This document shows, piece by piece, positions 1,792 to 49,874 of a DNA stretch of 64,000 bases; the first letter of the stretch is position 1; the number at the start of each line of letters is the position of its first letter. The notes beneath the pieces were generated by a model that saw nothing but the letters and a program-made list of their open reading frames with translations, was not told the DNA's origin and did no database searches. The stretch covers positions 9,810 through 73,809 of the forward strand of contig JAUYOV010000007.1 of the NCBI GenBank assembly GCA_030697795.1. The letters run 5' to 3'. The translations under genes and the position numbers were made by a program. This DNA is from a bacterium. Lineage in GTDB: Bacteria; Patescibacteriota; Minisyncoccia; JACQLN01.

Positions 1792-3573
1792 ATGCAATCT
1801 CAAATTAAACAGACTATAAGTGAAACTGTATCCAAGAAATTCGGCTTAAAAAATGTGCCGGATTTTTCAGTTGATATACCAGAAAAATCAGAACATGGCG
1901 ATTATGCTTCCAACATAGCCATGGTGTTAGCTCGAATATTAAAAAAGAATCCGTTGGAAATCGCCCATATAATTGATATGGAATTAGAGAAGTGGAATTT
2001 AAAAAATGGCTTAAAAACAGAAATTGCGTCGCCGGGTTTTATAAATTTCTTTATAGACACCAAGGGTTTGGGTTTGGTTTTAAAAGAAATAATTAAAAAG
2101 AAAGAAAAATTTGGCAGTGGTTTAAAAAAGAAAGAAACAATAATTATTGAATATTCTTCGCCTAATATTGCTAAACCCATGGGCGTGCATCATTTACGCA
2201 CAACCATAATCGGGCAATCTTTGGTTAATATGTATAACTTTTTGGGTTATAAAGTTTTAGCTATGAGCTTCCCTGGCGATTGGGGCACACAATTTGGTTC
2301 TTTAATAGCCGCTTATAAAAAGTGGGGTAATGCTAAAAAATTTAAAGTCTCGCCCGTTAAAGAAATGCTAAATCTCTATGTAAGATATAGCCATTTAGCT
2401 GAAAACGACGAAACATTGCAAGAAGAAGCTCGGCTGGAATTTAGAAAACTAGAACAAGGTAATAAAGAAAACCGAAGAATCTGGCATTTATTTAGAAAAG
2501 AATCTTTTAAAGATTTCGATAGAGTTTATAAAAAATTAGGCATTAAAATTCCTTTGGTTTTTGCCGAAAGTTTTTTCGAACCCTATTTAAAACAAGTTAT
2601 TGCAGACGCTTCTAATAAAAAAATTGCCGAACGTGGCGAAAACAACTCGCTGGTTGTTAAATTTAAAGACAATACTCCACCATTACTATTACAAAAATCC
2701 GACGGCGCCACACTTTATGCCACTCGAGACCTTGCCCAAATGAAATATCGGGTTCAAAAATGGCATCCTTCTAAAATAATTATTGTGGTGGCCAGCCAAC
2801 AAACGCTTTATTTTAACCAAGTTTTTAAAACCGCCGAAATGCTGGGTTATGCCAAAAAAGAAAATATGCAACATGTTAAATTTGGCATGGTTTTAGATTC
2901 CACTGGCAAAAAATTCGCCACGCGTGAAGGCAAGCTTATTCCCCTAGCCGATGTTTTAGACGAAGCAGTACGTCGAGCAAGAAAAGTTATAGATAAACTT
3001 AATCCTGAATCATTTCAAAAAGCAAAGCCCCGCACTGTCACACGACTTGTCCGCAGTAGCTTTAGCGGAGGCGGGAGCAAGTCTAGTGCTGGGGAAAAAG
3101 ATAAAATTGCCAAGATTGTTGGCCTAGGCGCAGTTAAATTCTTTGATCTTTCGCAAAATCGCTTAAGCGATATCGTTTTTGATTGGGACAAAATGCTAAA
3201 CCTCAAAGGCGCTTCGGCCCCATATATTCAATATTCTTATGCTCGGCTCAAAAGTATTTTAAGAAAAAATAAAAGTAAAATTATAAAATTTAATGTTGAG
3301 CTATTAAAAGAAAAAGAAGAAGTCTCTTTACTGCGCCACTTAATCCATTTTTCCGAAATCATAACCGACTCCGCCATTAAATACGAACCTAACCACCTAG
3401 CCGAGTATTTACTAAGACTAGCCGAGAAAGTAAACCATTTTTATGAAACTACGCCTATTCTTAAATCCGAAAAAGAAGTGCGTGCTTCAAGGTTGGCTTT
3501 AATAACAGCTGTGTGTAGTATTATAAAATCGGGTCTAGAACTTCTGGGCATAGAAGTGACGGAGAGGATGTGA
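1792..3573 (+). CDS. argS: arginine--tRNA ligase
   Basis: 593 aa. N-terminal Arg-tRNA synthetase domain, class I 'PMGVHHLRTTIIGQ' HIGH-like motif, and a C-terminal DALR anticodon-binding region. Confidence 0.9.
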   Translation: MQSQIKQTISETVSKKFGLKNVPDFSVDIPEKSEHGDYASNIAMVLARILKKNPLEIAHIIDMELEKWNLKNGLKTEIASPGFINFFIDTKGLGLVLKEIIKKKEKFGSGLKKKETIIIEYSSPNIAKPMGVHHLRTTIIGQSLVNMYNFLGYKVLAMSFPGDWGTQFGSLIAAYKKWGNAKKFKVSPVKEMLNLYVRYSHLAENDETLQEEARLEFRKLEQGNKENRRIWHLFRKESFKDFDRVYKKLGIKIPLVFAESFFEPYLKQVIADASNKKIAERGENNSLVVKFKDNTPPLLLQKSDGATLYATRDLAQMKYRVQKWHPSKIIIVVASQQTLYFNQVFKTAEMLGYAKKENMQHVKFGMVLDSTGKKFATREGKLIPLADVLDEAVRRARKVIDKLNPESFQKAKPRTVTRLVRSSFSGGGSKSSAGEKDKIAKIVGLGAVKFFDLSQNRLSDIVFDWDKMLNLKGASAPYIQYSYARLKSILRKNKSKIIKFNVELLKEKEEVSLLRHLIHFSEIITDSAIKYEPNHLAEYLLRLAEKVNHFYETTPILKSEKEVRASRLALITAVCSIIKSGLELLGIEVTERM

Positions 3574-3757
3574 GGGCTTTGTTCGTAAACGAAGTGAGCG
3601 GTAACAAAACCTTGCCCAGCACCTTTTTTTGTATAGACCCAATGATAAATTCTGTTTCGATAACAAAGTTTGATATAATATAAACATTATAAACATATAA
3701 AAAGGTGCTGGGTGCTCAACTTTATAGTTGCTCGCCTTGCTCGCAAATAAAATTGGC

Positions 3758-4813
3758 ATGAACCCAATCGTTGAAGCCATCAAAAAAGTTAAGCCCGCGG
3801 TTGTTAGCATTGTTATCACCAAAGAAATTACCGAAGAAATGCTAAGCCAGATGCCTTACTTTGGCGAAGGTGGCGTATTAACTCCGCCAGAAAAAAATTC
3901 TGGGGAAATTAAAAAAGAAATTCCTAAAGACCACGAAAAAATAAAAGTGGGCGGCGGTTCGGGTTTTATAGTTTCCCGCGATGGCTTAGTTTTAACCAAT
4001 AAACACGTAGTCCAAGACCCCGAAGCTACCTATACTGTGGTAACCGAAGACGACTATCACTTCCCGGCCAAGGTTTTAGCCCGTGACCCCATAAACGACA
4101 TTGCTATTTTAAAAATAGAAAACAATAAAGAATTTCCTTACGTTAAACTAGCCGACGCCAATAAACTGGACCTAGGCGAAACTGTGGTAGCTATTGGTAA
4201 CACCTTAGGCGAATTTAAAAATACTGTTTCGGCTGGCGTGGTTTCGGGTTTATCCAGATTCATTACCGCTCAAAATGAATTTAACGGCGAACCCTCTTTT
4301 TTGCGTGGCTTGGTTCAAACCGACGCCGCTATTAACCCCGGCAATTCGGGCGGGCCTTTAATTAATATGCGGGGTGAAGCCATTGGCATAAACGTAGCCG
4401 TAATACTGGGCGCCCAAAATGTTGGCTTTGCCATCCCTATAAATTCTGCGGCCAGAGACTTAGAAGACTTAAAAAAGTTCGGCCGACTACGAAAACCATT
4501 CTTAGGCGTAAGATATTTAATTATAAACAAAGACATGAAAGATAAGTTGAAGTTGCCGGTTGAAGCCGGTGCTTATGTTATGAAAGAAAATGCGCCCGGC
4601 GATGAAGCCGTGGTAAAAAATAGCCCAGCCGACAAAGCTGGCTTAAAAGAAAAAGATATTATATTAGAATTTAACGGCGCCAAATTAACCAGCGAAAAAA
4701 ACTTGCAAGATGTTTTAGAAAACTGCAAAATCGGCGAAAGCGTGCCACTTAAAGTTTTGCGAAACGGCGGAGAATTAGAACTAAAATTGATGCTGGAAGA
4801 AAGAAAGTTTTAA
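3758..4813 (+). CDS. HtrA/DegP-family serine protease with C-terminal PDZ domain
   Basis: Catalytic triad context 'TNKHVV', 'DIAILKI', 'GNSGGPLIN'. PDZ-like C-terminus. Start placed at the ATG rather than the upstream TTG. No obvious signal peptide. Confidence 0.8.
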   Translation: MNPIVEAIKKVKPAVVSIVITKEITEEMLSQMPYFGEGGVLTPPEKNSGEIKKEIPKDHEKIKVGGGSGFIVSRDGLVLTNKHVVQDPEATYTVVTEDDYHFPAKVLARDPINDIAILKIENNKEFPYVKLADANKLDLGETVVAIGNTLGEFKNTVSAGVVSGLSRFITAQNEFNGEPSFLRGLVQTDAAINPGNSGGPLINMRGEAIGINVAVILGAQNVGFAIPINSAARDLEDLKKFGRLRKPFLGVRYLIINKDMKDKLKLPVEAGAYVMKENAPGDEAVVKNSPADKAGLKEKDIILEFNGAKLTSEKNLQDVLENCKIGESVPLKVLRNGGELELKLMLEERKF

Positions 4814-43499: not shown

Positions 43500-44378
43500 T
43501 TATATTATATCACGAGCGTTATTTATTGATATTACCAATTTCTTAACTTTTTCCTCAAGCAAAGAACCTGAACAATGTTTGAGCATACCAAGATAAGAAG
43601 CTAGGTTTTTTGCATCAACTTTTCTAAACATTCTCCTTTTTGTTTTAGTCCTTAAAACTCTATGATTCGGCAAAACTACATAACCCAGAAAATCTATGCC
43701 TTGAGCATACTTTCTGATAATAACCTTATTCGGATGCAAACATAAGACTAATTTGCTAACCAGAAAGTTATTTATCTTTTTGGACAATTCAATTAAATAA
43801 TCCGCTTGTTCACTTAAAATGACAAAATCATCACAATAACGAATATAATACTTTTCTTTTAATTTGTGCTTAATAAACTGGTCTAATTCGTTAAGGTAAA
43901 TATTGGCAAATAACTGGCTGGTTACATTGCCTAAGGGCAAGGCTTTATCTTTATCTTTTTCAAAGCTTTTGATGATTCTCTCGACTAACCACATAGCATT
44001 TTCGTCTTTGATTTTTATTTGAATCAATTTAGTTAAGATATTTTGGTCTATGGAATCAAAGAATTTTTTAATGTCGCATTTTAAAGCGAATACATTTCGG
44101 CTATTGTTTTTACTTAATTGTTTATAGAAAGTTTCTAACCTTGTTACAGCTATATGAGTTCCTTTACCAACTCTACACGAATAAGAATCATATATAAAAT
44201 GTTTATCAAATATTGGATACAAAATTCTAAAGATAGCTTGATGTAAAACCCTGTCCAGAACACAGGCTTTGTGTATATGTCTTAGTTTGGGATCGGTAAC
44301 ATAAAAAGGAATATACTCGCTATGTTTGTATGTTTTGTTTTTTAATTCAAAATTAAGTTGAAACAAGTTGTCTTCCAA
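43500..44378 (-). CDS. diversity-generating retroelement reverse transcriptase
   Basis: RT motifs, including 'LGNVTSQ' (the [I/L]GxxxSQ motif recalled as distinguishing DGR RTs from retron/group II QGxxxSP) and 'RYCDDFVI'. A TR/VR pair lies immediately upstream. Stop codon is 2 bp from the pilC start. Confidence 0.8.
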   Translation of the reverse strand: MEDNLFQLNFELKNKTYKHSEYIPFYVTDPKLRHIHKACVLDRVLHQAIFRILYPIFDKHFIYDSYSCRVGKGTHIAVTRLETFYKQLSKNNSRNVFALKCDIKKFFDSIDQNILTKLIQIKIKDENAMWLVERIIKSFEKDKDKALPLGNVTSQLFANIYLNELDQFIKHKLKEKYYIRYCDDFVILSEQADYLIELSKKINNFLVSKLVLCLHPNKVIIRKYAQGIDFLGYVVLPNHRVLRTKTKRRMFRKVDAKNLASYLGMLKHCSGSLLEEKVKKLVISINNARDII

Positions 44379-44530
44379 GTTAAACTCAAATTCCTGAACA
44401 TCCAGCCGTTTTCTTTTGCCTTTTTTAAATTCGCGCCAAGCTAAAAATAGATTTTCTAAGGAAATAACTTTATCAAAAACATTATGGAAAACTTTCCCAC
44501 TAAAGCCCCCCCGACAGCGTCAATGCGAAT

Positions 44531-44866
44531 TTGGTTCATAGGATTACTGAATTTTATAAGCAAATCTATCTTTTATCCAGCAAGATAAGCAAAAGAGACA
44601 AATTCGGTATTTGGTTAAAGATAGAAAATTCCTGTTTAGAAACATTGTATCTAATAATCAAAGCCTCTTTTGCCCACAAATCAACCAAACTGCCTCCGCT
44701 AAATTCAGCCAGAATAGAAATAGAAGTTTTAAAAAGACTTTTAAGAATTACCCATGAACTTTTAATAATTCAAGATAAAACATACTTAAAACTAGAATCC
44801 GATTTACAGGAAATATCCAAAATGACTAATGGCTGGATCAAATATGAAACACAAAAGGAGCAGTGA
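44531..44866 (+). CDS. possible Avd-like four-helix-bundle accessory protein (TTG start)
   Basis: 111-aa helical ORF between RT and TR. C-terminal 'QEISKMTNGWIK' resembles the conserved end of the Avd/TIGR02436 family. Its orientation is opposite to RT and TR sense, which is atypical. Confidence 0.35.
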   Translation: MVHRITEFYKQIYLLSSKISKRDKFGIWLKIENSCLETLYLIIKASFAHKSTKLPPLNSARIEIEVLKRLLRITHELLIIQDKTYLKLESDLQEISKMTNGWIKYETQKEQ

Positions 44867-44889
44867 TGCTCCCTTTTTAGTGCGGAAAC

Positions 44890-45016
44890 TTCTCACGAGA
44901 ACGGAGACTGCTATTGGAGTTGTCGGGATTGTAGTTACTAACGTTGACCTTGCTATTGTGCCTGTTCCAGTTGACGTTCGGCACATTACCATCGGCATTA
45001 CGCGAACCCGTTTTTT
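44890..45016 (-). repeat. DGR template repeat (TR)
   Basis: 120-bp ungapped core 44892-45011 aligns to 45297-45416 with 20 mismatches. At 18 of them the minus-strand base here is A. Flanking positions continue the pattern. Confidence 0.75.
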
Positions 45017-45207
45017 GCCTAATCTCATCCATTATCACCAATAACCTTTTACAAAGTTATCTGCGTCAGCCGCGAACACACGCGGATTTTTTTATGAAGC
45101 ATCCGCCAAAAATAGCGAAACCTTCTCTAAAACTAGGCAAGCAGTTTCCTTTTTGTTGGCAAACCGCTATCTCACCATGGGCGAGACCGATTGTATTAGC
45201 CAAAATA

Positions 45208-45239
45208 ATTTTATCACAAAAAGAAAACCCGCCAGCTTT
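45208..45239 (-). terminator. hairpin CCCGCCAGC-TTT-GCTGGCGGG + T-run downstream of the DGR target gene/VR
   Basis: Perfect 9-bp GC-rich stem about 55 nt beyond the VR end. Consistent with the hairpin commonly found after a DGR VR. Confidence 0.55.
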
Positions 45240-45284
45240 GCTGGCGGGGGAAAAGGGTACAAGATAAAAATTACAAGGGAAAAA

Positions 45285-46016
45285 TCAGGAAACTACCTCA
45301 CGAGAACGGAGACTGCTATAGGAGTAGCCGGGATAATAGTAACTAACGCAGACCTTGCTATAGTGCCTGCTCCAGAAGACGAACGGCACACCCCCACCGG
45401 CAACACGCGAACCCGTACAGGACGTGGTGTTGTTCCTATCCATATGCTCTTTGGTTTCGCTCCAGTATTTGAAGCCATGTAGCTTGCGCTCCCGAAGGGT
45501 TTCGGTTTTGAGACCCTTCTCCTTGATCTGGTTAGCCGAAAGGTTTTTGAGTTCCTCATCGGCTTCCACCCGGTCGCGCACCCAGATGGCGTAATGGCCA
45601 TTGTTGGAATTCCGTTCTTCCTTGTCCCAATCAATAGCCACATCCAGATTGTCGTAGTAGCGCCAGCACTTGAAGTGCTTATCGCAGACTTCGTAGATTT
45701 GGTTGAGGGTGAGGCCTTGGGCTACCACGATGAGGCGGTCAAAACCGACCTGCTTTTCGGGAATGCGAACCTGCGAGAAGTCCAGTTCCAAACTGAAAAA
45801 CTTACGGTAGAAGTTCTGCCAGTCGGTGAACGGGACGATATTCGGCATCGCCGGGAAAAGACCAACGATCCCTTCGGCCTTGCCAGATTTGGCATTGGCC
45901 ACTTCGGCGGCCATTTCGGGCGAGAATCCTTTCTTGCCCAAAGTTATCAGCATTTCACCGACTAGTCCATGAGAAAAATCCGAGGGCTTGTAGATACGGC
46001 TCGCGACTTCCGACAT
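45285..46016 (-). CDS. DGR target protein (variable C-terminus)
   Basis: 243 aa with GGAGG RBS. VR occupies roughly the last 45 codons ('...TGSRVAGGGVPFVFWSRHYSKVCVSYYYPGYSYSSLRSRE'). GC-rich. Confidence 0.7.
   Translation of the reverse strand: MSEVASRIYKPSDFSHGLVGEMLITLGKKGFSPEMAAEVANAKSGKAEGIVGLFPAMPNIVPFTDWQNFYRKFFSLELDFSQVRIPEKQVGFDRLIVVAQGLTLNQIYEVCDKHFKCWRYYDNLDVAIDWDKEERNSNNGHYAIWVRDRVEADEELKNLSANQIKEKGLKTETLRERKLHGFKYWSETKEHMDRNNTTSCTGSRVAGGGVPFVFWSRHYSKVCVSYYYPGYSYSSLRSREVVS
45295..45421 (-). repeat. DGR variable repeat (VR)
   Basis: Counterpart of the TR; mismatches fall at TR adenines. Confidence 0.75.
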
Positions 46017-46337: not shown

Positions 46338-46577
46338 TTATACAGAAACAAAAGTTTTAGCTGTAGTTTTATTTAAAACCAAATCTTTCATCGTAATTTT
46401 CTCAACTCCTTTCTTACCTAATTTTTCTTTTACCCCCAAGATTTCTAAATATAATGGTTTTGATTTTGAATCCACATCTAAAAGTATCTCCGGAGCGATC
46501 TCGAGAGTCTTTTTTACTTTACCCTCTTTAAAGGTGATGCTTAAAGCATCGGCATAAGAATCATAAACTATTTTCAT
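46338..46577 (-). CDS. DUF2283-like protein (putative antitoxin)
   Basis: 'MKIVYDSYADALSITF...' pattern. Confidence 0.5.
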   Translation of the reverse strand: MKIVYDSYADALSITFKEGKVKKTLEIAPEILLDVDSKSKPLYLEILGVKEKLGKKGVEKITMKDLVLNKTTAKTFVSV

Positions 46578-46578
46578 T

Positions 46579-46803
46579 TTATATCTTACTAACCCAATGT
46601 TGAGTAATTACAACGATAATTTTATTATTATTATTTACAAATATAACCTTTAAATAAAGATTGCGAAATTTTTTAAATGCAATCATTTTCCCTCCGTTAG
46701 TTGGCAAAATCTTATCAGGATTCTTAAGAGTCTTTACAACCAAACCCCTAGCTATACTTCTTTGTTTCAACTTTAAGATTGCGTGCTTGGTGAAGCTTAT
46801 CAT
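46579..46803 (-). CDS. DUF4258-like protein (putative toxin)
   Basis: 'MISFTKHAILKLKQRSI...' pattern; abuts its partner. Confidence 0.5.
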   Translation of the reverse strand: MISFTKHAILKLKQRSIARGLVVKTLKNPDKILPTNGGKMIAFKKFRNLYLKVIFVNNNNKIIVVITQHWVSKI

Positions 46804-46824: not shown

Positions 46825-48588
46825 TTATTCCCTCGAAGCCCTCAAAACTTCTTCTATACTCGTAATGCCTTGAACGGCTTTTATAAAACCATCTTCTAGC
46901 ATAGTTATCATACCTTCTTCTTCGGCTACTTTTTGAATATCATCTGATGTGGCCGAAGCCACAATAAGTTCTTTAATTTTTGGCGTAATATCTAAAACTT
47001 CAAAAATTCCCACCCGACCCTTATACCCATTGGGCGAATTTTCTGTTTCTTTCGGCCTATAAAAACTTATTGATTCCCATGTGTCTTTTGGCCCGATAAT
47101 TTTTTCGTCTTTAAGTGTTTTTAAAACTTTATCCAAATTTATTTCTTTACCCAGCGCTTCTATTTCTTTTTTTGTAAGATTATATTTGGTCCTGCTATCC
47201 CCCGATAAACATCTAACCAACCTCTGCCCCACAATAGCTGTTAGCGTAGACGAAATAAGAAACGGCTCTACTTTCATATCTATTAAGCGCGGGATAGCGC
47301 CGGCGGCAGAATTTGTGTGCAAAGTAGAAACAACTAAATGACCAGTTAAGGAAGCGTTAATAGCGAGCGCCGCCGTTTCACTGTCGCGGATTTCCCCCAC
47401 CATAATTATATCTGGATCCTGCCTAACCAAAGTGCGTAAACCCTGCGCAAAAGAAAAACCAATATCCGGTTTAACCTGTGTTTGATTAACGCGCGGTATA
47501 CGATATTCTATCGGATCCTCTACTGTAGAAATATTAACTTCGGGCGTATTTAAAATATCTAAAACTGTATAAAGCGACGTGGTTTTGCCCGAACCGGTGG
47601 GACCGGTTGATAAAATTAAACCAGTTGGACGCTTAATGGCGCGATGCAAGATTTCTAGGGCCTTACCCCGATAGCCCAAACTTTCCAAAGTAAAACCTTG
47701 AGAATCTTCTTTTAAAAGACGCATCACAATTTTTTCGCCGTCATAAACCGGTAAAATAGAAACACGAAAAGAAACTTTAAAACCCTTCCCTTCTATTTTA
47801 AAACGGCCGTCTTGAGGCAACCTATGTTCGTCTAATTTTAAATTAGAGAGGACTTTGATGCGCGCCACAATACCATCGTGCACCGCTTGAGGCAGTGTCA
47901 TTACATCTTTTAAAATTCCATCAATGCGATACCTCACCACTACATCTTTTTCTTCGGGTTCTATATGTATATCGGAAGCGCTTTCCAAAATAGCGTGCCG
48001 AATTAAAGTATCAACGATTTTAACCACGGGCAATTCTTCGGCCACGCGTTGTAATTCGGCGTCCGATTTTATTTTGCCATCTTTAGAAGCCAAGCCCACA
48101 ACCTTAAGTACAGCGGAAGATTCACTTTTTATAATATTGTTAAATTCGTCTTCTAAACTACGCTGATACTGCCTTAAAACAGCTTCTAGCGACTGGCGTG
48201 AAGTTAACCTAGGTAAAATATTAAGACTGGCTTTTTTCTTTATAAAATCTATAGTTTGTAAATCGTTAGGATCCAGCATAGCTACCTCAAGATCAGTGCC
48301 TGTCTGGCGAAATGCCACAATATTACTGTTGCGGGCGATTGGTTCTGGAATTATTTTTAAAATTTCCGAATCAACTTTTTGTTGGGTTAGATCCACAAAA
48401 GGAATGCCTAAAACATAAGCTTTGGCTTTGGCTATCATCTCTTCGGAAACAAAATTACGACGAATTAAAACCTCATCTAACCTGCGGCCAGTTTCTTTTT
48501 GATCGGTTTCGGCTAGTTCTAAATTTTTGGCCGAAACTAAATTTGAATCAACTAAAAATCTTTTAAATTTTTCCAAGTCCAACGTCAT
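46825..48588 (-). CDS. pilB: type IV pilus assembly ATPase PilB (GspE family)
   Basis: Walker A 'GPTGSGKTTSLY', Asp/His boxes, N-terminal GSPII domains. Confidence 0.9.
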   Translation of the reverse strand: MTLDLEKFKRFLVDSNLVSAKNLELAETDQKETGRRLDEVLIRRNFVSEEMIAKAKAYVLGIPFVDLTQQKVDSEILKIIPEPIARNSNIVAFRQTGTDLEVAMLDPNDLQTIDFIKKKASLNILPRLTSRQSLEAVLRQYQRSLEDEFNNIIKSESSAVLKVVGLASKDGKIKSDAELQRVAEELPVVKIVDTLIRHAILESASDIHIEPEEKDVVVRYRIDGILKDVMTLPQAVHDGIVARIKVLSNLKLDEHRLPQDGRFKIEGKGFKVSFRVSILPVYDGEKIVMRLLKEDSQGFTLESLGYRGKALEILHRAIKRPTGLILSTGPTGSGKTTSLYTVLDILNTPEVNISTVEDPIEYRIPRVNQTQVKPDIGFSFAQGLRTLVRQDPDIIMVGEIRDSETAALAINASLTGHLVVSTLHTNSAAGAIPRLIDMKVEPFLISSTLTAIVGQRLVRCLSGDSRTKYNLTKKEIEALGKEINLDKVLKTLKDEKIIGPKDTWESISFYRPKETENSPNGYKGRVGIFEVLDITPKIKELIVASATSDDIQKVAEEEGMITMLEDGFIKAVQGITSIEEVLRASRE

Positions 48589-48756
48589 TGTACTCTAATT
48601 ATACAACATCTTTCTTAAATTGTGGCGATTTGATAGAGTAAATGCTGACGGAGAGTAGTATAGTGGGTTAAAAGCAAAAGTCTTTGCTTTTAACGGGCGG
48701 TTATATTTATATTAAGTGATGGATAAAAAACCGCCCCGGAAGTAGCCTGCTTCTTG

Positions 48757-48862
48757 CCCGCCTAAATTTTATCGGGGTGTCGTATACTGGCAGTACGTCT
48801 GCTTTGGGAGCAGATAGACTGGGTTCGATTCCCAGCACCCCGACTGATCAAATTTAGGCGGG
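48757..48862. repeat. perfect 13-bp inverted repeat (CCCGCCTAAATTT / AAATTTAGGCGGG) bracketing tRNA-Pro
   Basis: Arms at 48757-48769 and 48850-48862, each 3-6 nt from the tRNA ends. Confidence 0.8.
48773..48843 (+). tRNA. tRNA-Pro (anticodon UGG)
   Basis: Acceptor CGGGGTG/CACCCCG, anticodon loop TTTGGGA, T-arm CTGGG-TTCGATT-CCCAG, discriminator A. Short D-arm. No encoded CCA. Confidence 0.7.
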
Positions 48863-48865
48863 TGA

Positions 48866-48906
48866 AGGAGCAGGTAGTCCGAGTTCGATTCTCGGCTCTC
48901 CGACCA
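48866..48906 (+). other. orphan tRNA 3' fragment (T-arm CCGAG-TTCGATT-CTCGG, acceptor 3' strand CTCTCCG, A, CCA)
   Basis: T-stem/loop and a 3' acceptor strand ending ACCA, with no matching 5' half or D/anticodon arms nearby. Confidence 0.5.
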
Positions 48907-48912
48907 AGTCAA

Positions 48913-48948
48913 ACTTGGCGCAGCCTAGTATGACTTGGCGCAGCCTAG
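48913..48948. repeat. two tandem 16-bp direct repeats ACTTGGCGCAGCCTAG (period 20)
   Basis: Exact copies at 48913-48928 and 48933-48948, followed by a GCCTCG/CGAGGC hairpin. Confidence 0.8.
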
Positions 48949-48982
48949 GTTGACGCAGGCCTCGTTTGACGAGGCAATAATC

Positions 48983-49234
48983 ATGTATTACGTGTACGCG
49001 TTAAAAAGCCAGAAAGATCTAAACCTCTATATTGGATTCACAACCGATTTAAAAGAAAGAATGGAAAGACATAAAAACGGAGAGGTTTTGTCTACTAAAC
49101 ACAGAAGACTATTAAAATTGATTTTTTATGAAGCTTTCATAAATAAACATGATGCACTAGCGAGAGAAAAATATTTAAAAAGCGGTTATGGGAAAGAGCA
49201 GTTACAAAGCATTTTAAAAAACATACTAACATAG
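48983..49234 (+). CDS. GIY-YIG nuclease-family protein (YhbQ/UPF0213-like)
   Basis: 'YYVYALKS...LYIGFTTDLKERMERHKNG...EKYLKSGYGKEQ' GIY-YIG core. Start set at the ATG at 48983. Confidence 0.65.
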   Translation: MYYVYALKSQKDLNLYIGFTTDLKERMERHKNGEVLSTKHRRLLKLIFYEAFINKHDALAREKYLKSGYGKEQLQSILKNILT

Positions 49235-49305
49235 GCGGGTATCGTATAGTGGTAATACCACAGCTTTCCAAGCTGTTGCTAGGGGTTCGATTCCCCTTAC
49301 CCGCT
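49235..49305 (+). tRNA. tRNA-Gly (anticodon UCC)
   Basis: Acceptor GCGGGTA/TACCCGC, D-stem GTAT/ATAC, anticodon stem ACAGC/GCTGT with loop TTTCCAA, T-arm AGGGG-TTCGATT-CCCCT. Confidence 0.8.
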
Positions 49306-49474
49306 CTAAATGAAAATAATCCCAATTCTCATTGGGGTTATTTTTGTTTATTGAATGGATTTGGGGAATCGAAGGGTATTTTAAAAAGTGAACTGCTTCA
49401 CTTTTTAAAAACCCGGGCTCCGAGGGAACTTGCGAGCCTGAAACGCAGTTTCGTGCGAGCAAGTGGAAGAGGAG

Positions 49475-49492
49475 GATTCCCCTTACCCGCTC
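49475..49492 (+). repeat. 18-bp direct duplicate of the tRNA-Gly 3' end (GATTCCCCTTACCCGCTC)
   Basis: Identical to 49289-49306. Embedded in a run of hairpins between tRNA-Gly and hup. Confidence 0.75.
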
Positions 49493-49601
49493 AAAATTGC
49501 AACAATTTTGAGCGAGGCTCGCTCGCATTCTGCGAGGCGGCCAGCTCCAACAAAAAACCCCACTTTATAAGATGGGAGTTTTTGTTAACTTTTTACAAAG
49601 T

Positions 49602-49874
49602 CTACTTTACAGCTTCTTTCAAAGTCTTGCCGGCTCTAAATTTAGGGGCTTTTTTAGCCGCAATATGAATCTTTTCGCCTGTTCTTGGGTTTATACCTTC
49701 GCGAGCTTTTCTATCGGAAACTCTAAAAACTCCAAAACCAGAAATATTCACGCTATCGCCCTTAATCATGGTTTGAGTAATAACATCAAAAATGGTATCT
49801 ACCATTTCTGCTGTTTCCGATTTGGCTTTGCCAGTTTTGGCAGCTACTGCTGCCACGAATTGATTTTTTGTCAT
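49602..49874 (-). CDS. hup: HU-family DNA-binding protein
   Basis: 90 aa with 'GFGVFRVSDRKAREGINPRTGEKI' arm motif. Confidence 0.9.
   Translation of the reverse strand: MTKNQFVAAVAAKTGKAKSETAEMVDTIFDVITQTMIKGDSVNISGFGVFRVSDRKAREGINPRTGEKIHIAAKKAPKFRAGKTLKEAVK

Follow-up and report, generated by a model that had tools for sequence, protein, structure and literature searches.

We describe a pair of nested tRNA genes in a 64-kb stretch of a patescibacterial genome (contig JAUYOV010000007.1 of assembly GCA_030697795.1; hereafter, the window), which is the part of the host genome covered here. Positions 48649 to 48906 of the window contain a tRNA-Pro(UGG) gene nested in another tRNA-Pro(UGG) gene: an intact inner gene lies within the anticodon of an older gene, the resident of the locus, and both halves of the older gene are still in place. 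We regard this structural claim as secure. It is also probable that a protein-less, palindrome-bounded cassette invaded the anticodon loop of the resident tRNA gene and brought a replacement with it. The case for this interpretation is built from the anatomy of the unit, its recursion in a related genome, a family of similar arrangements in metagenomes, the covariation of the paired arms, and the match in identity between the inserted tRNA and its target.

Anatomy of the nested unit

ARAGORN and Rfam called three tRNA genes in the window, namely, tRNA-Ala (at 511), tRNA-Pro(UGG) (48773 to 48843), and tRNA-Gly(UCC) (at 49235). The tRNA-Pro gene is on the + strand, is intact (58.6 bits to the Rfam tRNA model), and presumably serves as the working copy; its CCA is not encoded. 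It lies between the arms of a perfect 13-bp inverted repeat, CCCGCCTAAATTT at 48757 to 48769 and AAATTTAGGCGGG at 48850 to 48862, which extends to 17 nt at 94% identity in a repeat search. The arms are separated from the tRNA by 3 nt (TAT) on the left and 6 nt (CTGATC) on the right, in agreement with a preliminary description of the locus, made from the letters alone, that had placed perfect 13-bp inverted repeats 3 to 6 nt from the tRNA ends. Direct reading adds the junction nucleotides CTTG (48753 to 48756) and TGAA (48863 to 48866) outside the arms, such that the left end of the inserted segment occupies 48753 to 48769 and its right end 48850 to 48866, both given on the + strand. The whole segment, which we refer to as the cassette, is 114 bp long (48753 to 48866) and consists of CTTG, a 13-bp arm, 3 nt, tRNA-Pro(UGG), 6 nt, the second 13-bp arm, and TGAA. 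The tRNA makes up 71 nt of it and the other parts 43 nt, with no open reading frame (ORF) inside.

The outer gene is found in three pieces on the same strand. Its first 5' piece (48649 to 48666) comprises the acceptor 5' strand CGGAGAG (48649 to 48655), which is the exact complement of 48896 to 48902, followed by U8, A9, the D-stem 5' strand GTAT, and the start of the D loop, AGTGG. From 48648 onward, 19 nt show 100% identity with the 5' end of the middle tRNA in a triple nest of the closest relative (L002, discussed below; related loci are referred to by L numbers). The second 5' piece (48742 to 48752), placed by alignment to the tRNA of another relative (L001), consists of the D-stem 3' remnant GTA (C25 is lost), G26, the anticodon-stem 5' strand CCTGC (48746 to 48750), U32, and U33. 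Between these pieces lies a 75-nt insertion in the outer D loop (48667 to 48741, + strand), delimited by repeat search and folding and absent from L001, with two hairpins: one at 48667 to 48694 with a perfect 12-bp stem and one reading CGGGCGG...CCGCCCCG (48694 to 48738). The 3' half (48867 to 48906, + strand), read directly, covers tRNA positions 36 to 76 with the sequence GGA-GCAGG-TAGT-CCGAG-TTCGATT-CTCGG-CTCTCCG-A-CCA: G36, G37, and A38, the anticodon-stem strand GCAGG (48870 to 48874), the variable loop TAGT, the T arm (48879 to 48895), the acceptor strand CTCTCCG (48896 to 48902), A73 (48903), and CCA (48904 to 48906). In the fold, CCTGC pairs with GCAGG as the outer anticodon stem. The outer gene is thus interrupted in its anticodon, in the order U32 U33, insert, G36 G37 A38. 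A repeat search matched its 3' half to that of the inner tRNA at 79% identity.

The preliminary description had recognized a T arm, a 3' acceptor strand, and ACCA after tRNA-Pro, which stands, with the anticodon-stem 3' strand and variable loop now included. It had labeled this fragment an orphan with no 5' half, and that label was wrong because the 5' half and the D-loop insertion had been missed; CGGAGAG and CCTGC are the complementary 5' pieces. The alternative it had left room for, a complete second tRNA accounting for the fragment, is partly right: a second tRNA does explain it, but in interrupted form, and the outer copy is called neither by ARAGORN (introns of 0 to 300 nt, lowered thresholds) nor by Rfam (gathering threshold and E values up to 10). 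It had also contrasted an inner tRNA lacking an encoded CCA with a fragment possessing one. This is accurate and carries little weight, because the encoded CCA varies for inner and outer copies alike at related loci. A brute-force in silico splicing of 52,268 deletion variants was too permissive, with 34,224 "tRNAs" of many identities accepted by ARAGORN, and was discarded.

The complete unit of ~258 nt (48649 to 48906, + strand) is predicted to fold as one structure. The minimum free energy for 48645 to 48910 was -122.1 kcal/mol (z = -9.9; 0 of 200 shuffled sequences were as stable), with the outer acceptor stem closed. The predicted stalk of 23 to 24 bp is assembled from the anticodon stem, the TTCTT/AAGGA pairing, and the 13-bp repeat, with a single 1x2 internal loop and the inner tRNA-Pro at its tip. 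Removal of the insert leaves a 9-nt loop, TTCTTG plus GGA (TTCTTGGGA), and joining U33 straight to G36 leaves a 5-nt loop without T34 and G35.

Relatives at the pilB locus

The outer gene could be identified by comparison with relatives that share the adjacent gene pilB, whose ATPase product assigns the host to Patescibacteria/Paceibacteria. L001, whose PilB is 79% identical, has a single ordinary tRNA-Pro(UGG) gene located 57 nt upstream of pilB, and the equivalent spacing in the window is 61 nt. The outer pieces match this tRNA at 65 of 66 retained positions and lack only T20, A21, C25, T34, and G35. For the 3' half alone the identity is 97.6% over 41 nt, and all 37 nt of 48867 to 48903 are identical. 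The outer pieces therefore represent the resident tRNA-Pro(UGG) gene of this locus, cut between U33 and G36.

The closest relative, L002 (PilB 86%), has three tRNA-Pro genes nested as A[B[C]], where B is of the CGGAGAG type and C is intact; an independent JGI contig, L331, carries a near-identical triple nest. The junction of the outermost copy is as in the window, CCTGC-TTCTTG-CCCGCCCAACTTT ... AAAAGTTTTGGCGGG-TGAAGGA-GCAGG. Its acceptor is that of the single tRNA-Pro in L096 (PilB 84%) and carries a C-A mismatch. Copy A is therefore a mosaic: its anticodon stem and junction are those seen in the outer gene of the window, its acceptor and T arm are L096-type, and from its sequence it looks like the product of co-conversion of flanks during a recombination-based insertion.

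Other relatives show different states of the locus. In L081 and L088 (PilB 92%), a single tRNA-Pro is followed by CTGAACGAA-GTGAAGGAG, which is the right junction without its arm; both arms are absent, and little or nothing is left of the outer 5' half. There is no nest in L001, L096, or L088, and the presence of nests among close relatives is thus patchy. The inverted repeat itself is absent from L001 and L096, which keep the tRNA, and present in covarying form at ~30 other loci, contrary to a pattern that the preliminary description had considered, in which all relatives would keep the tRNA and lack the repeat.

Many short-read contigs of this lineage (L082, L086, L087, L090, L091, L093 to L095, L097, and L098) end 110 to 200 nt upstream of pilB, in or at the tRNA-Pro region, which suggests that nested or duplicated tRNA repeats break the assembly there. 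Close relatives are present in the Hainich groundwater metagenomes (ERZ12926xx).

A family of nested tRNA-Pro genes

Metagenomes were scanned with a proline-specific pattern (GTTCGAWTC-N8-CCGA, then 15 to 45 nt, then the same motif again), which matched at least 120 loci on contigs without taxonomy. The pattern and the parser demanded intact T loops and paired acceptors, and intact nests are accordingly favored in what follows. Among the matches listed, at least 53 stacks had, for the outer copy, a tRNA-like 5' half whose acceptor strand was complementary throughout to the outer 3' strand; ~48 were convincing nests. The nests were on low-GC contigs; some other matches, all on GC-rich contigs, were plain tandem duplications of tRNA-Pro 3' ends (L221, L222, L228, L240, L260, and L262). 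Three-level nests were also found in L226 and L320. Gene neighborhoods differ from locus to locus, and the architecture is present in contigs from ENA, JGI, and NCBI assemblies, which argues that it is no artifact.

Among the matches listed, ~30 nests, including that of the window, share the junctions YTTG-CCC...[tRNA]...GGG-TGAAGG. On the 5' side, their common design runs from the outer anticodon-stem strand through 0 to 2 loop nucleotides, C-YYG-CCC, an arm of 12 to 18 nt, and 0 to 7 nt to tRNA-Pro; on the 3' side, 5 to 12 nt lead to the complementary arm, whose last bases are GGG, and then come TGAA, GG-N38, and the 3' strand of the outer anticodon stem. The arms are GC-rich at the foot and AT-rich distally, and the anticodon of the inner tRNA-Pro is UGG, CGG, or GGG. 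GGG-TGAAGG is invariant in all 26 aligned nests, and the CTTG junction is identical in the window and L002. The commonest junction class, TTCTTG...TGAAGGA, accounts for at least 11 loci. Smaller junction types exist as well, several of which are insertions exactly between positions 35 and 36 (L277, the middle layer of L320, and L231).

One nest involves a different tRNA. In L246, a tRNA-Arg(UCG) lies inside a tRNA-Arg-like gene (- strand, ~4215 to 4430 of the reverse complement), with the junction CTTC|CCTGCCCGCC...GGCGGG|GAA placed exactly at 35|36. The outer D arm of this locus also holds a GC-rich hairpin. This was the sole non-proline nest in 1.16 Mb of low-GC loci, and it shows that nesting is not confined to proline tRNAs. 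In all cases the identity of the cargo was that of the target, with Pro in Pro and Arg in Arg.

Covariation of the arms and additional hairpins

In an alignment of the stalks of 26 nests, 94.5% of cells were paired, 10 of 12 pairs had changed on both sides, and 92 cells carried double changes. The covariation score was 0.72; shuffles scored 0.17, and sliding the register by 1 to 3 columns gave no more than 0.17. Each left arm had been picked as the segment most complementary to the right arm, which tilts this alignment toward structure, although the register is fixed by the invariant CCC/GGG. Among single changes, G-T pairs outnumbered A-C pairs by 7 to 2, which weakly suggests pairing of the sense strand, most simply as RNA. 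A K-turn or loop-E motif was also considered for the CTTG/TGAAGG junction and was rejected because the required G-A pairs are absent.

The cassettes proved more similar to each other than the genes that enclose them. In the nine cassettes of the arm family CCCCGTTAGAAAT, identity ranged from 74 to 94% (mean, 0.82), whereas their outer tRNAs were 47 to 89% alike (mean, 0.68). These outer tRNAs have different, internally complementary acceptors (CGGGGCG, CGGGCTG, CGGTCTG, CGGGGAG, CGGGATA, and CGGGGTG) and differ also in the anticodon stem and in A38 versus T38.

Extra GC-rich hairpin insertions in the D loop, variable region, or T loop are confined to outer layers. They are found in the outer D loop in the window, L232, L241, L323, and the Arg nest of L246 and in the anticodon-stem/variable region in L226. 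In L320 the T loop is split as GGGTTC|CCTGCCCGCC-GGGCCC-GGCAGGCGGG|GATTC, and the insertion resembles the arms of an "empty" cassette. The most damaged copies are the outermost ones, as seen in the C-A mismatch of L002 copy A, the hairpin insertion in the outermost layer of L226, and the split T loop in the outermost layer of L320.

GC-rich palindromes also occur in AT-rich genomes with nests, "empty" in the loops of relic tRNAs (L320, + strand, 2250 to 2900; L226, + strand, 1950 to 2520). In addition, a leader motif is located directly upstream of many tRNA genes (in L081, L088, L267, L324, and L254); it consists of GGCGGG-CTTG-CCCGCC, a hairpin with a CUUG tetraloop, followed by GAAGC-N4-GCGAAGG. 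If the loop of this hairpin were opened, the cassette ends CTTG-CCCGCC...GGCGGG would result.

A probable replacement cassette and how it might work

Of the readings offered in the preliminary description, that of a tRNA gene disrupted by a tRNA-Pro minicassette bounded by inverted repeats is supported by these comparative data. We infer that the cassette moves relative to its outer hosts, from the greater similarity among cassettes than among outer tRNAs, the mosaic in L002, the differing neighborhoods, and the patchy presence among close relatives, and that the outer copies are relics, from their noncanonical loops, hairpin insertions, and damage and the loss of the 5' half in sister lineages. 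Most junction classes leave noncanonical loops after excision, and some give C33 or G33.

Under this interpretation, the cassette would spread at the DNA level between tRNA genes of the same identity, with an enzyme supplied in trans. Insertion into the anticodon loop would destroy the target gene, and the cassette would survive because its cargo is a working replacement tRNA. Since only insertions that replace the destroyed tRNA would survive, Pro would be found in Pro and Arg in Arg. The next insertion would go inside the newcomer because the newcomer has the only intact anticodon loop. Repeated insertions would build a set of Russian dolls with the oldest layer outermost, and the outer layers, as relics, would later gather GC-rich hairpin insertions, mismatches, and deletions.

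Expression may follow the same plan. Because a search of the + strand from 48500 to 49650 detected no terminator-like site and the conserved pilB-tRNA spacer lies upstream, the unit would be transcribed as one precursor of ~258 nt from the promoter of the old gene, the outer halves serving as leader and trailer. The old halves and the inverted repeats would pair into a tRNA-shaped scaffold with the 23- to 24-bp stalk. RNase III might first open the stalk; RNase P and a 3' nuclease would free the inner tRNA, and CCA would be added posttranscriptionally.

Two routes of insertion can be envisaged. A recombinase might join the cassette palindrome, either folded or as a small circle, with the anticodon stem-loop. 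The site would then be arm-TGAA|CTTG-arm, similar to sites of the lox/dif type, and the anticodon stem-loop would offer a small palindrome with a 7-nt spacer. For the window, the junction of the right and left inverted repeats in such a circle would read ...GGCGGGTGAA|CTTGCCCGCC.... One strand would be distinguished by the unpaired base conserved at the hairpin foot, where G faces TG; attC sites of integrons and the folded site of CTX-phi offer parallels. Alternatively, in a homing process, a nuclease would cut intact tRNA genes, and repair would copy the insert from a filled allele with co-conversion of its flanks.

Several observations weigh against this interpretation. No further copies of the window's cassette, arms, or D-loop insert were found in the 64-kb window or in 99 related loci, and no near-identical genome pairs with an empty and a filled site were found. 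Target-site duplication amounts at most to a possible 2-nt TG flanking the arms; there is no clean one, and the exact boundaries are ambiguous. Neither a free cassette nor a circle junction (GGGTGAA...CTTGCCC) was found, only short leader hairpins GGCGGGCTTGCCCGCC. Phage and plasmid collections contained no match to the cassette, and a search of viral contigs for the right junction returned chance matches and variable arms of tRNA-Ser only. When ORFs within 3 kb of ~55 nests were clustered, no recombinase or transposase recurred; CCA-adding enzyme (8 loci), UPF0102/YraN (5 loci), and GIY-YIG (~11 of ~55) formed clusters, none of them consistent, and the largest clusters were spurious frames across tRNAs.

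The outer copies themselves raise difficulties as well. Their acceptor, T, and anticodon stems are nearly always perfectly paired even though they differ between loci, which could reflect selection on the outer structure rather than a recent origin. The apparent intactness is biased, because the search pattern and parser accepted only intact T loops and paired acceptors. In addition, a perfect 7-nt loop would be restored by exact excision of the insert in L277, the middle layer of L320, the Arg nest of L246, and the CTTG class of L235 and L255, and these loci may be spliced. Finally, the higher identity of cassettes than of outer tRNAs could reflect a single old insertion, after which the outer halves, being unconstrained, decayed faster. 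Compensated changes in the outer stems are hard to square with this last alternative, with the caveat that nest finding favors intact ones.

A wider claim, which we advance tentatively, is that these cassettes constitute a new class of mobile element: protein-less, hairpin-ended, site specific at about 35|36, loaded with a tRNA of the same identity as the target, and therefore able to replace essential tRNA genes in series and to spread horizontally among Patescibacteria. A bolder form, applicable to part of the family, would make them the first tRNA introns of bacteria to be removed enzymatically rather than by self-splicing, the intron itself giving rise to a tRNA. As a new class, the cassette would use either an unrecognized hairpin-specific recombinase or nuclease or the enzymes of its host.

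Alternative explanations

The alternative with most in its favor, though we think it rather unlikely, is that the outer halves and arms are now kept as a selected scaffold that helps make the inner tRNA. This would be compatible with a cassette origin and would differ on whether the outer copies are relics. The outer acceptor-T minihelix could set ends through RNase P and RNase Z, and the stalk could provide entry for RNase III or protect the precursor. Such a role would account for the strong covariation of the arms, with its 7-to-2 excess of G-T over A-C, for outer acceptor stems that vary by locus yet remain paired, and for the stability of the precursor fold (z of -9.9). The nest also sits directly behind the conserved pilB-tRNA intergenic region, and therefore the inner tRNA depends on the promoter of the outer gene. 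Against this, the close relatives L001, L096, and L088 make tRNA-Pro without any scaffold, large insertions in the D, T, and variable regions are tolerated in the outer layers, and selection bias in nest finding inflates the apparent intactness of the stems. It is improbable that the cassette is instead a true intron, removed (perhaps together with the D-loop hairpin) by an endonuclease and an RtcB-type ligase to leave outer and inner tRNA-Pro both functional, with two to three tRNAs per gene. The insertion lies at or beside 35|36 in all types, the three outer stems are nearly always intact, and the conserved junction nucleotides adjoin a covarying helix. Moreover, exact excision restores TTCGGGT (L277, the middle layer of L320, and L231), CTTCGAA (the Arg nest of L246), or CUUGGGN (L235 and L255; CTTG plus GGN). 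However, the loop left by excision is 9 nt long, or the anticodon is lost, in the commonest class, which has at least 11 loci, as well as in the window; other classes end up with C33 or G33. There is no bulge-helix-bulge but a continuous helix with a 1x2 internal loop, C25 is gone from the window's outer D stem, the outermost layers are visibly damaged, and sister lineages have deleted the outer 5' half yet retain the inner tRNA. We know of no bacterial tRNA-splicing endonuclease. Hairpin insertions in several loops do recall the multi-intron tRNAs of Thermoproteales (PMC4033280).

The remaining explanations concern how the nest arose. An RNA-mediated origin, in which an anticodon nuclease cuts the tRNA, an RNA-repair ligase joins a piece of hairpin-flanked pre-tRNA between the halves, and a reverse transcriptase copies the product into cDNA that recombines with the genome, is very improbable in our view, its support being entirely indirect. 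It would fit an insertion point inside the anticodon, as for anticodon nucleases, and a cargo of the same identity as the target; the CUUG-loop leader hairpin, opened in the loop, would supply CTTG-CCCGCC...GGCGGG. A reverse transcriptase is encoded 4 kb away, though as part of a diversity-generating retroelement, and none is found at other nests. The inner copy ends in CCA only in some cases, whereas the cDNA of a mature tRNA would carry it, and the conserved TGAA and extra junction nucleotides are left unexplained. Still less credible is a classical att scar, with the halves left by one or two deleted integrase islands in tRNA-Pro, as the preliminary description had also proposed. tRNA genes, and the anticodon loop especially, are standard integrase targets; plain tandem duplications of tRNA-Pro 3' ends occur in the same scan in GC-rich bacteria; and the 3' end of the window's tRNA-Gly is repeated at 49476 to 49493. 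Integrase events, however, leave direct repeats and a chimeric gene, whereas here both old halves flank a different, complete tRNA, no chimeric tRNA has been restored, the linkers are covarying inverted repeats, the pattern is recursive, and no integrase gene lies beside the nests. The third reading in that description, of a tRNA-like structure at the end of an RNA, found no support. Tandem duplication with deletion, which would give direct rather than inverted linkers, and double integrase events, which would leave unrelated linkers, were considered as well and rejected. We give almost no credence to an assembly artifact in which short reads of similar tRNA-Pro copies were misjoined. Many short metagenome contigs do break inside the tRNA-Pro region. 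The same architecture, however, recurs with different sequences in ~50 contigs from various projects and assemblers, some of them hundreds of kilobases long, L002 and L331 are near-identical independent assemblies, and misjoins would not create inverted-repeat junctions.

Comparison with known systems

Every known family that we considered (group I intron, bulge-helix-bulge intron, integrase island, transfer-messenger RNA [tmRNA], and integron cassette) differs from the nest in at least one defining property. By analogy, the unit would appear to work most like a tRNA-targeting island, and its RNA resembles a processing stalk of the rRNA type. Like the cassette, integrase islands and prophages target tRNA genes, often in the anticodon stem-loop, supply replacement sequence, and stack fragments upon repeated use. 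Unlike it, they are kilobases long, carry an integrase, swap a single segment, and leave direct repeats and a chimeric tRNA. The cassette delivers a complete tRNA, keeps both old halves, and has inverted linkers, and it measures 114 bp without a gene and stacks concentrically.

Disrupted tRNAs are best known from archaea, where bulge-helix-bulge introns, multi-intron tRNAs, and the split tRNAs of Nanoarchaeum (PMC4033280, PMC3218864) share with the nest the interruption of the anticodon, further interruptions in D and T loops, and a long complementary helix. The nest is bacterial, however, mostly leaves no restorable loop, and is interrupted by a tRNA of the same identity. The archaeal intron motif, a 4-bp helix between two 3-nt bulges, is found neither in the window nor in the aligned family. 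In bacteria, self-splicing introns are the only well-known interruption of tRNA genes (PMC4033280). Group I introns in bacterial tRNA-Leu, fMet, Ile, and Arg genes resemble the cassette in their location in the anticodon loop and their horizontal spread, but the cassette has no catalytic core (typically >200 nt), with no Rfam match to a group I core in the insert at the gathering threshold or at E values up to 10, and the exon junction in the window cannot be restored. A tmRNA was rejected because the acceptor has G3-C70 and not G3-U70, the tmRNA mode of ARAGORN returned nothing, and Rfam tmRNA scores were below threshold (15.5 and 7.5 bits).

The RNase III stalks of rRNA operons are helices of at least 20 bp formed by covarying flanks of a stable RNA, and the nest has both features, the helix as predicted. 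The stalk of the nest, in which cleavage is putative, is distinguished by its position inside another tRNA gene and by conserved asymmetric junction nucleotides at its base. At the DNA level, repetitive extragenic palindromes (REP) and REPINs, integron attC sites, and the folded CTX-phi site used by XerCD are likewise palindromes of conserved structure and variable sequence with an unpaired base near the foot. They are non-autonomous, and "empty" GC-rich palindromes occur in the same genomes as nests; none is known with a tRNA in the hairpin loop or with insertion into an anticodon loop. The attC boxes RYYYAAC/GTTRRRY fit L318 and L002 copy A (GCCCAAC/GTTGGGC) and fit neither the window (GCCTAAA/TTTAGGC) nor most families; their orientation varies, and no intI was seen. 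Nor was a RAYT transposase seen, although no search aimed at one was made. As in miniature inverted-repeat transposable elements and DNA transposons, there are terminal inverted repeats, with ends at the junctions CTT-G-CCC... and ...GGG-TG-AAG. The free-standing GIY-YIG nuclease SegB of phage T4, encoded in a tRNA cluster, provides a further parallel, since a GIY-YIG gene lies among the tRNA genes of the window and homing with co-conversion would explain mosaics such as L002 copy A. In contrast to SegB, the window ORF is an 83-aa catalytic domain without a DNA-binding domain, is absent from most nests, and has no known cleavage site.

We found no description of nested tRNA genes in open-access papers and preprints, though a prior description is possible. 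A 2014 review described bacterial tRNA genes as lacking structural diversity apart from self-splicing introns (PMC4033280).

Downstream elements and other features

A 20-nt tandem repeat (48904 to 48949, + strand; repeat search) separates the nest from the GIY-YIG ORF. It contains two exact copies of the 16-mer ACTTGGCGCAGCCTAG (48914 to 48929 and 48934 to 48949), which the preliminary description had correctly listed. The first 15 nt of the repeat (CCAAGTCAAAC...) are common to the 3' flank of the tRNA-end repeat in L081, and no further copies of the downstream repeats were found in the window or the 99 related loci.

The stand-alone GIY-YIG nuclease ORF, also noted before, lies at 48983 to 49234 on the + strand and encodes 83 aa (PF01541; E value, 1.8e-15); its stop codon abuts tRNA-Gly. 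Homologs are located beside nests or tRNA-Gly in L247, in L236, L253, L284, L303, and L312, and in L249, L328, and L096 but not at most nests. From its sequence, the ORF is a candidate for DNA cleavage at tRNA genes. Small GIY-YIG ORFs (~80 to 120 aa) occur at shifting sites, namely, before tRNA-Gly in the window, after it in L096 (2 to 280) and L002 (2481 to 2777), and in pairs in the L236 type, and they behave like mobile insertions in tRNA clusters. The spacer between tRNA-Pro and tRNA-Gly is itself variable. It encodes a conserved 110-aa protein without a Pfam match in L001 (2105 to 2437), L002, and L096, with a DUF5674 protein in addition in L002 (L002 positions 2975 to 3310 and 3313 to 3654), and has the GIY-YIG gene instead in the window.

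Downstream of tRNA-Gly (49235 to 49305), the region from 49307 to 49493 contains a terminator-like hairpin, a structured stretch of ~130 nt, and a direct repeat of the tRNA 3' end from the T loop on (GATTCCCCTTACCCGCT, 49476 to 49493); the structured stretch starts with the complement GGGGAATCG. This repeat is a classical att-like duplication and is unlike the tRNA-Pro nest. A conserved element of 150 to 190 nt follows tRNA-Pro or tRNA-Gly in relatives (- strand; L088, ~1850 to 2320; L081, ~1780 to 2300; and L280, between two nests). It has an inverted copy of the T loop and acceptor at its start, the motifs GGAATCGAAARCCGGARC ... GAGGYGGGGTCGCGA ... TGTGAC split by variable hairpins, and a direct copy of the tRNA 3' end at its end. 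Possible identities for the element are a structured RNA and a miniature integrative element; the L088 copy had no Rfam match.

The window also contains a diversity-generating retroelement (43500 to 46016), with a reverse transcriptase at 43500 to 44378 (RVT_1; E value, 3e-21), a bAvd-like accessory protein at 44531 to 44866, a template repeat at 44892 to 45011, and a variable repeat at 45297 to 45416 (83% identical), the latter at the 3' end of a 243-aa target gene (45285 to 46016). Just downstream of pilB, adjacent genes for DUF2283 (79 aa) and DUF4258 (74 aa) proteins (46338 to 46803) resemble a toxin-antitoxin-like pair.

In viral contigs, a general pattern of two stacked T loops yielded mostly odd phage tRNA arrays, with no clear nest among the matches listed. 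In two IMG/VR contigs (L217, + strand, 2200 to 2860; L214, - strand, 1400 to 1720), the arrays include T-arm/acceptor fragments in stacks. Calling one of the tRNAs requires a 249-nt "intron," and candidate partners for the acceptor on the 5' side are present 200 to 330 nt upstream. These phage tRNAs may be disrupted or nested; they bear no relation to the cassette family.

Implications

In practical terms, tRNA finders miss the outer copies and report orphan fragments, and nests seem to break short-read assemblies beside pilB in this lineage. The layered relics provide a readable record of successive tRNA replacements, in which an essential tRNA gene is repeatedly overwritten from inside by a cassette of ~100 bp carrying its own replacement. 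If the cassette is mobile, it would be a minimal selfish element whose sole cargo is the gene that it destroys. It would also allow tRNA genes to be replaced horizontally in organisms whose genomes are tiny, and it would exemplify in nature how a hairpin directs insertion into a defined loop of 7 nt. Splicing in part of the family, if it occurs, would be the first protein-dependent tRNA splicing in Bacteria.

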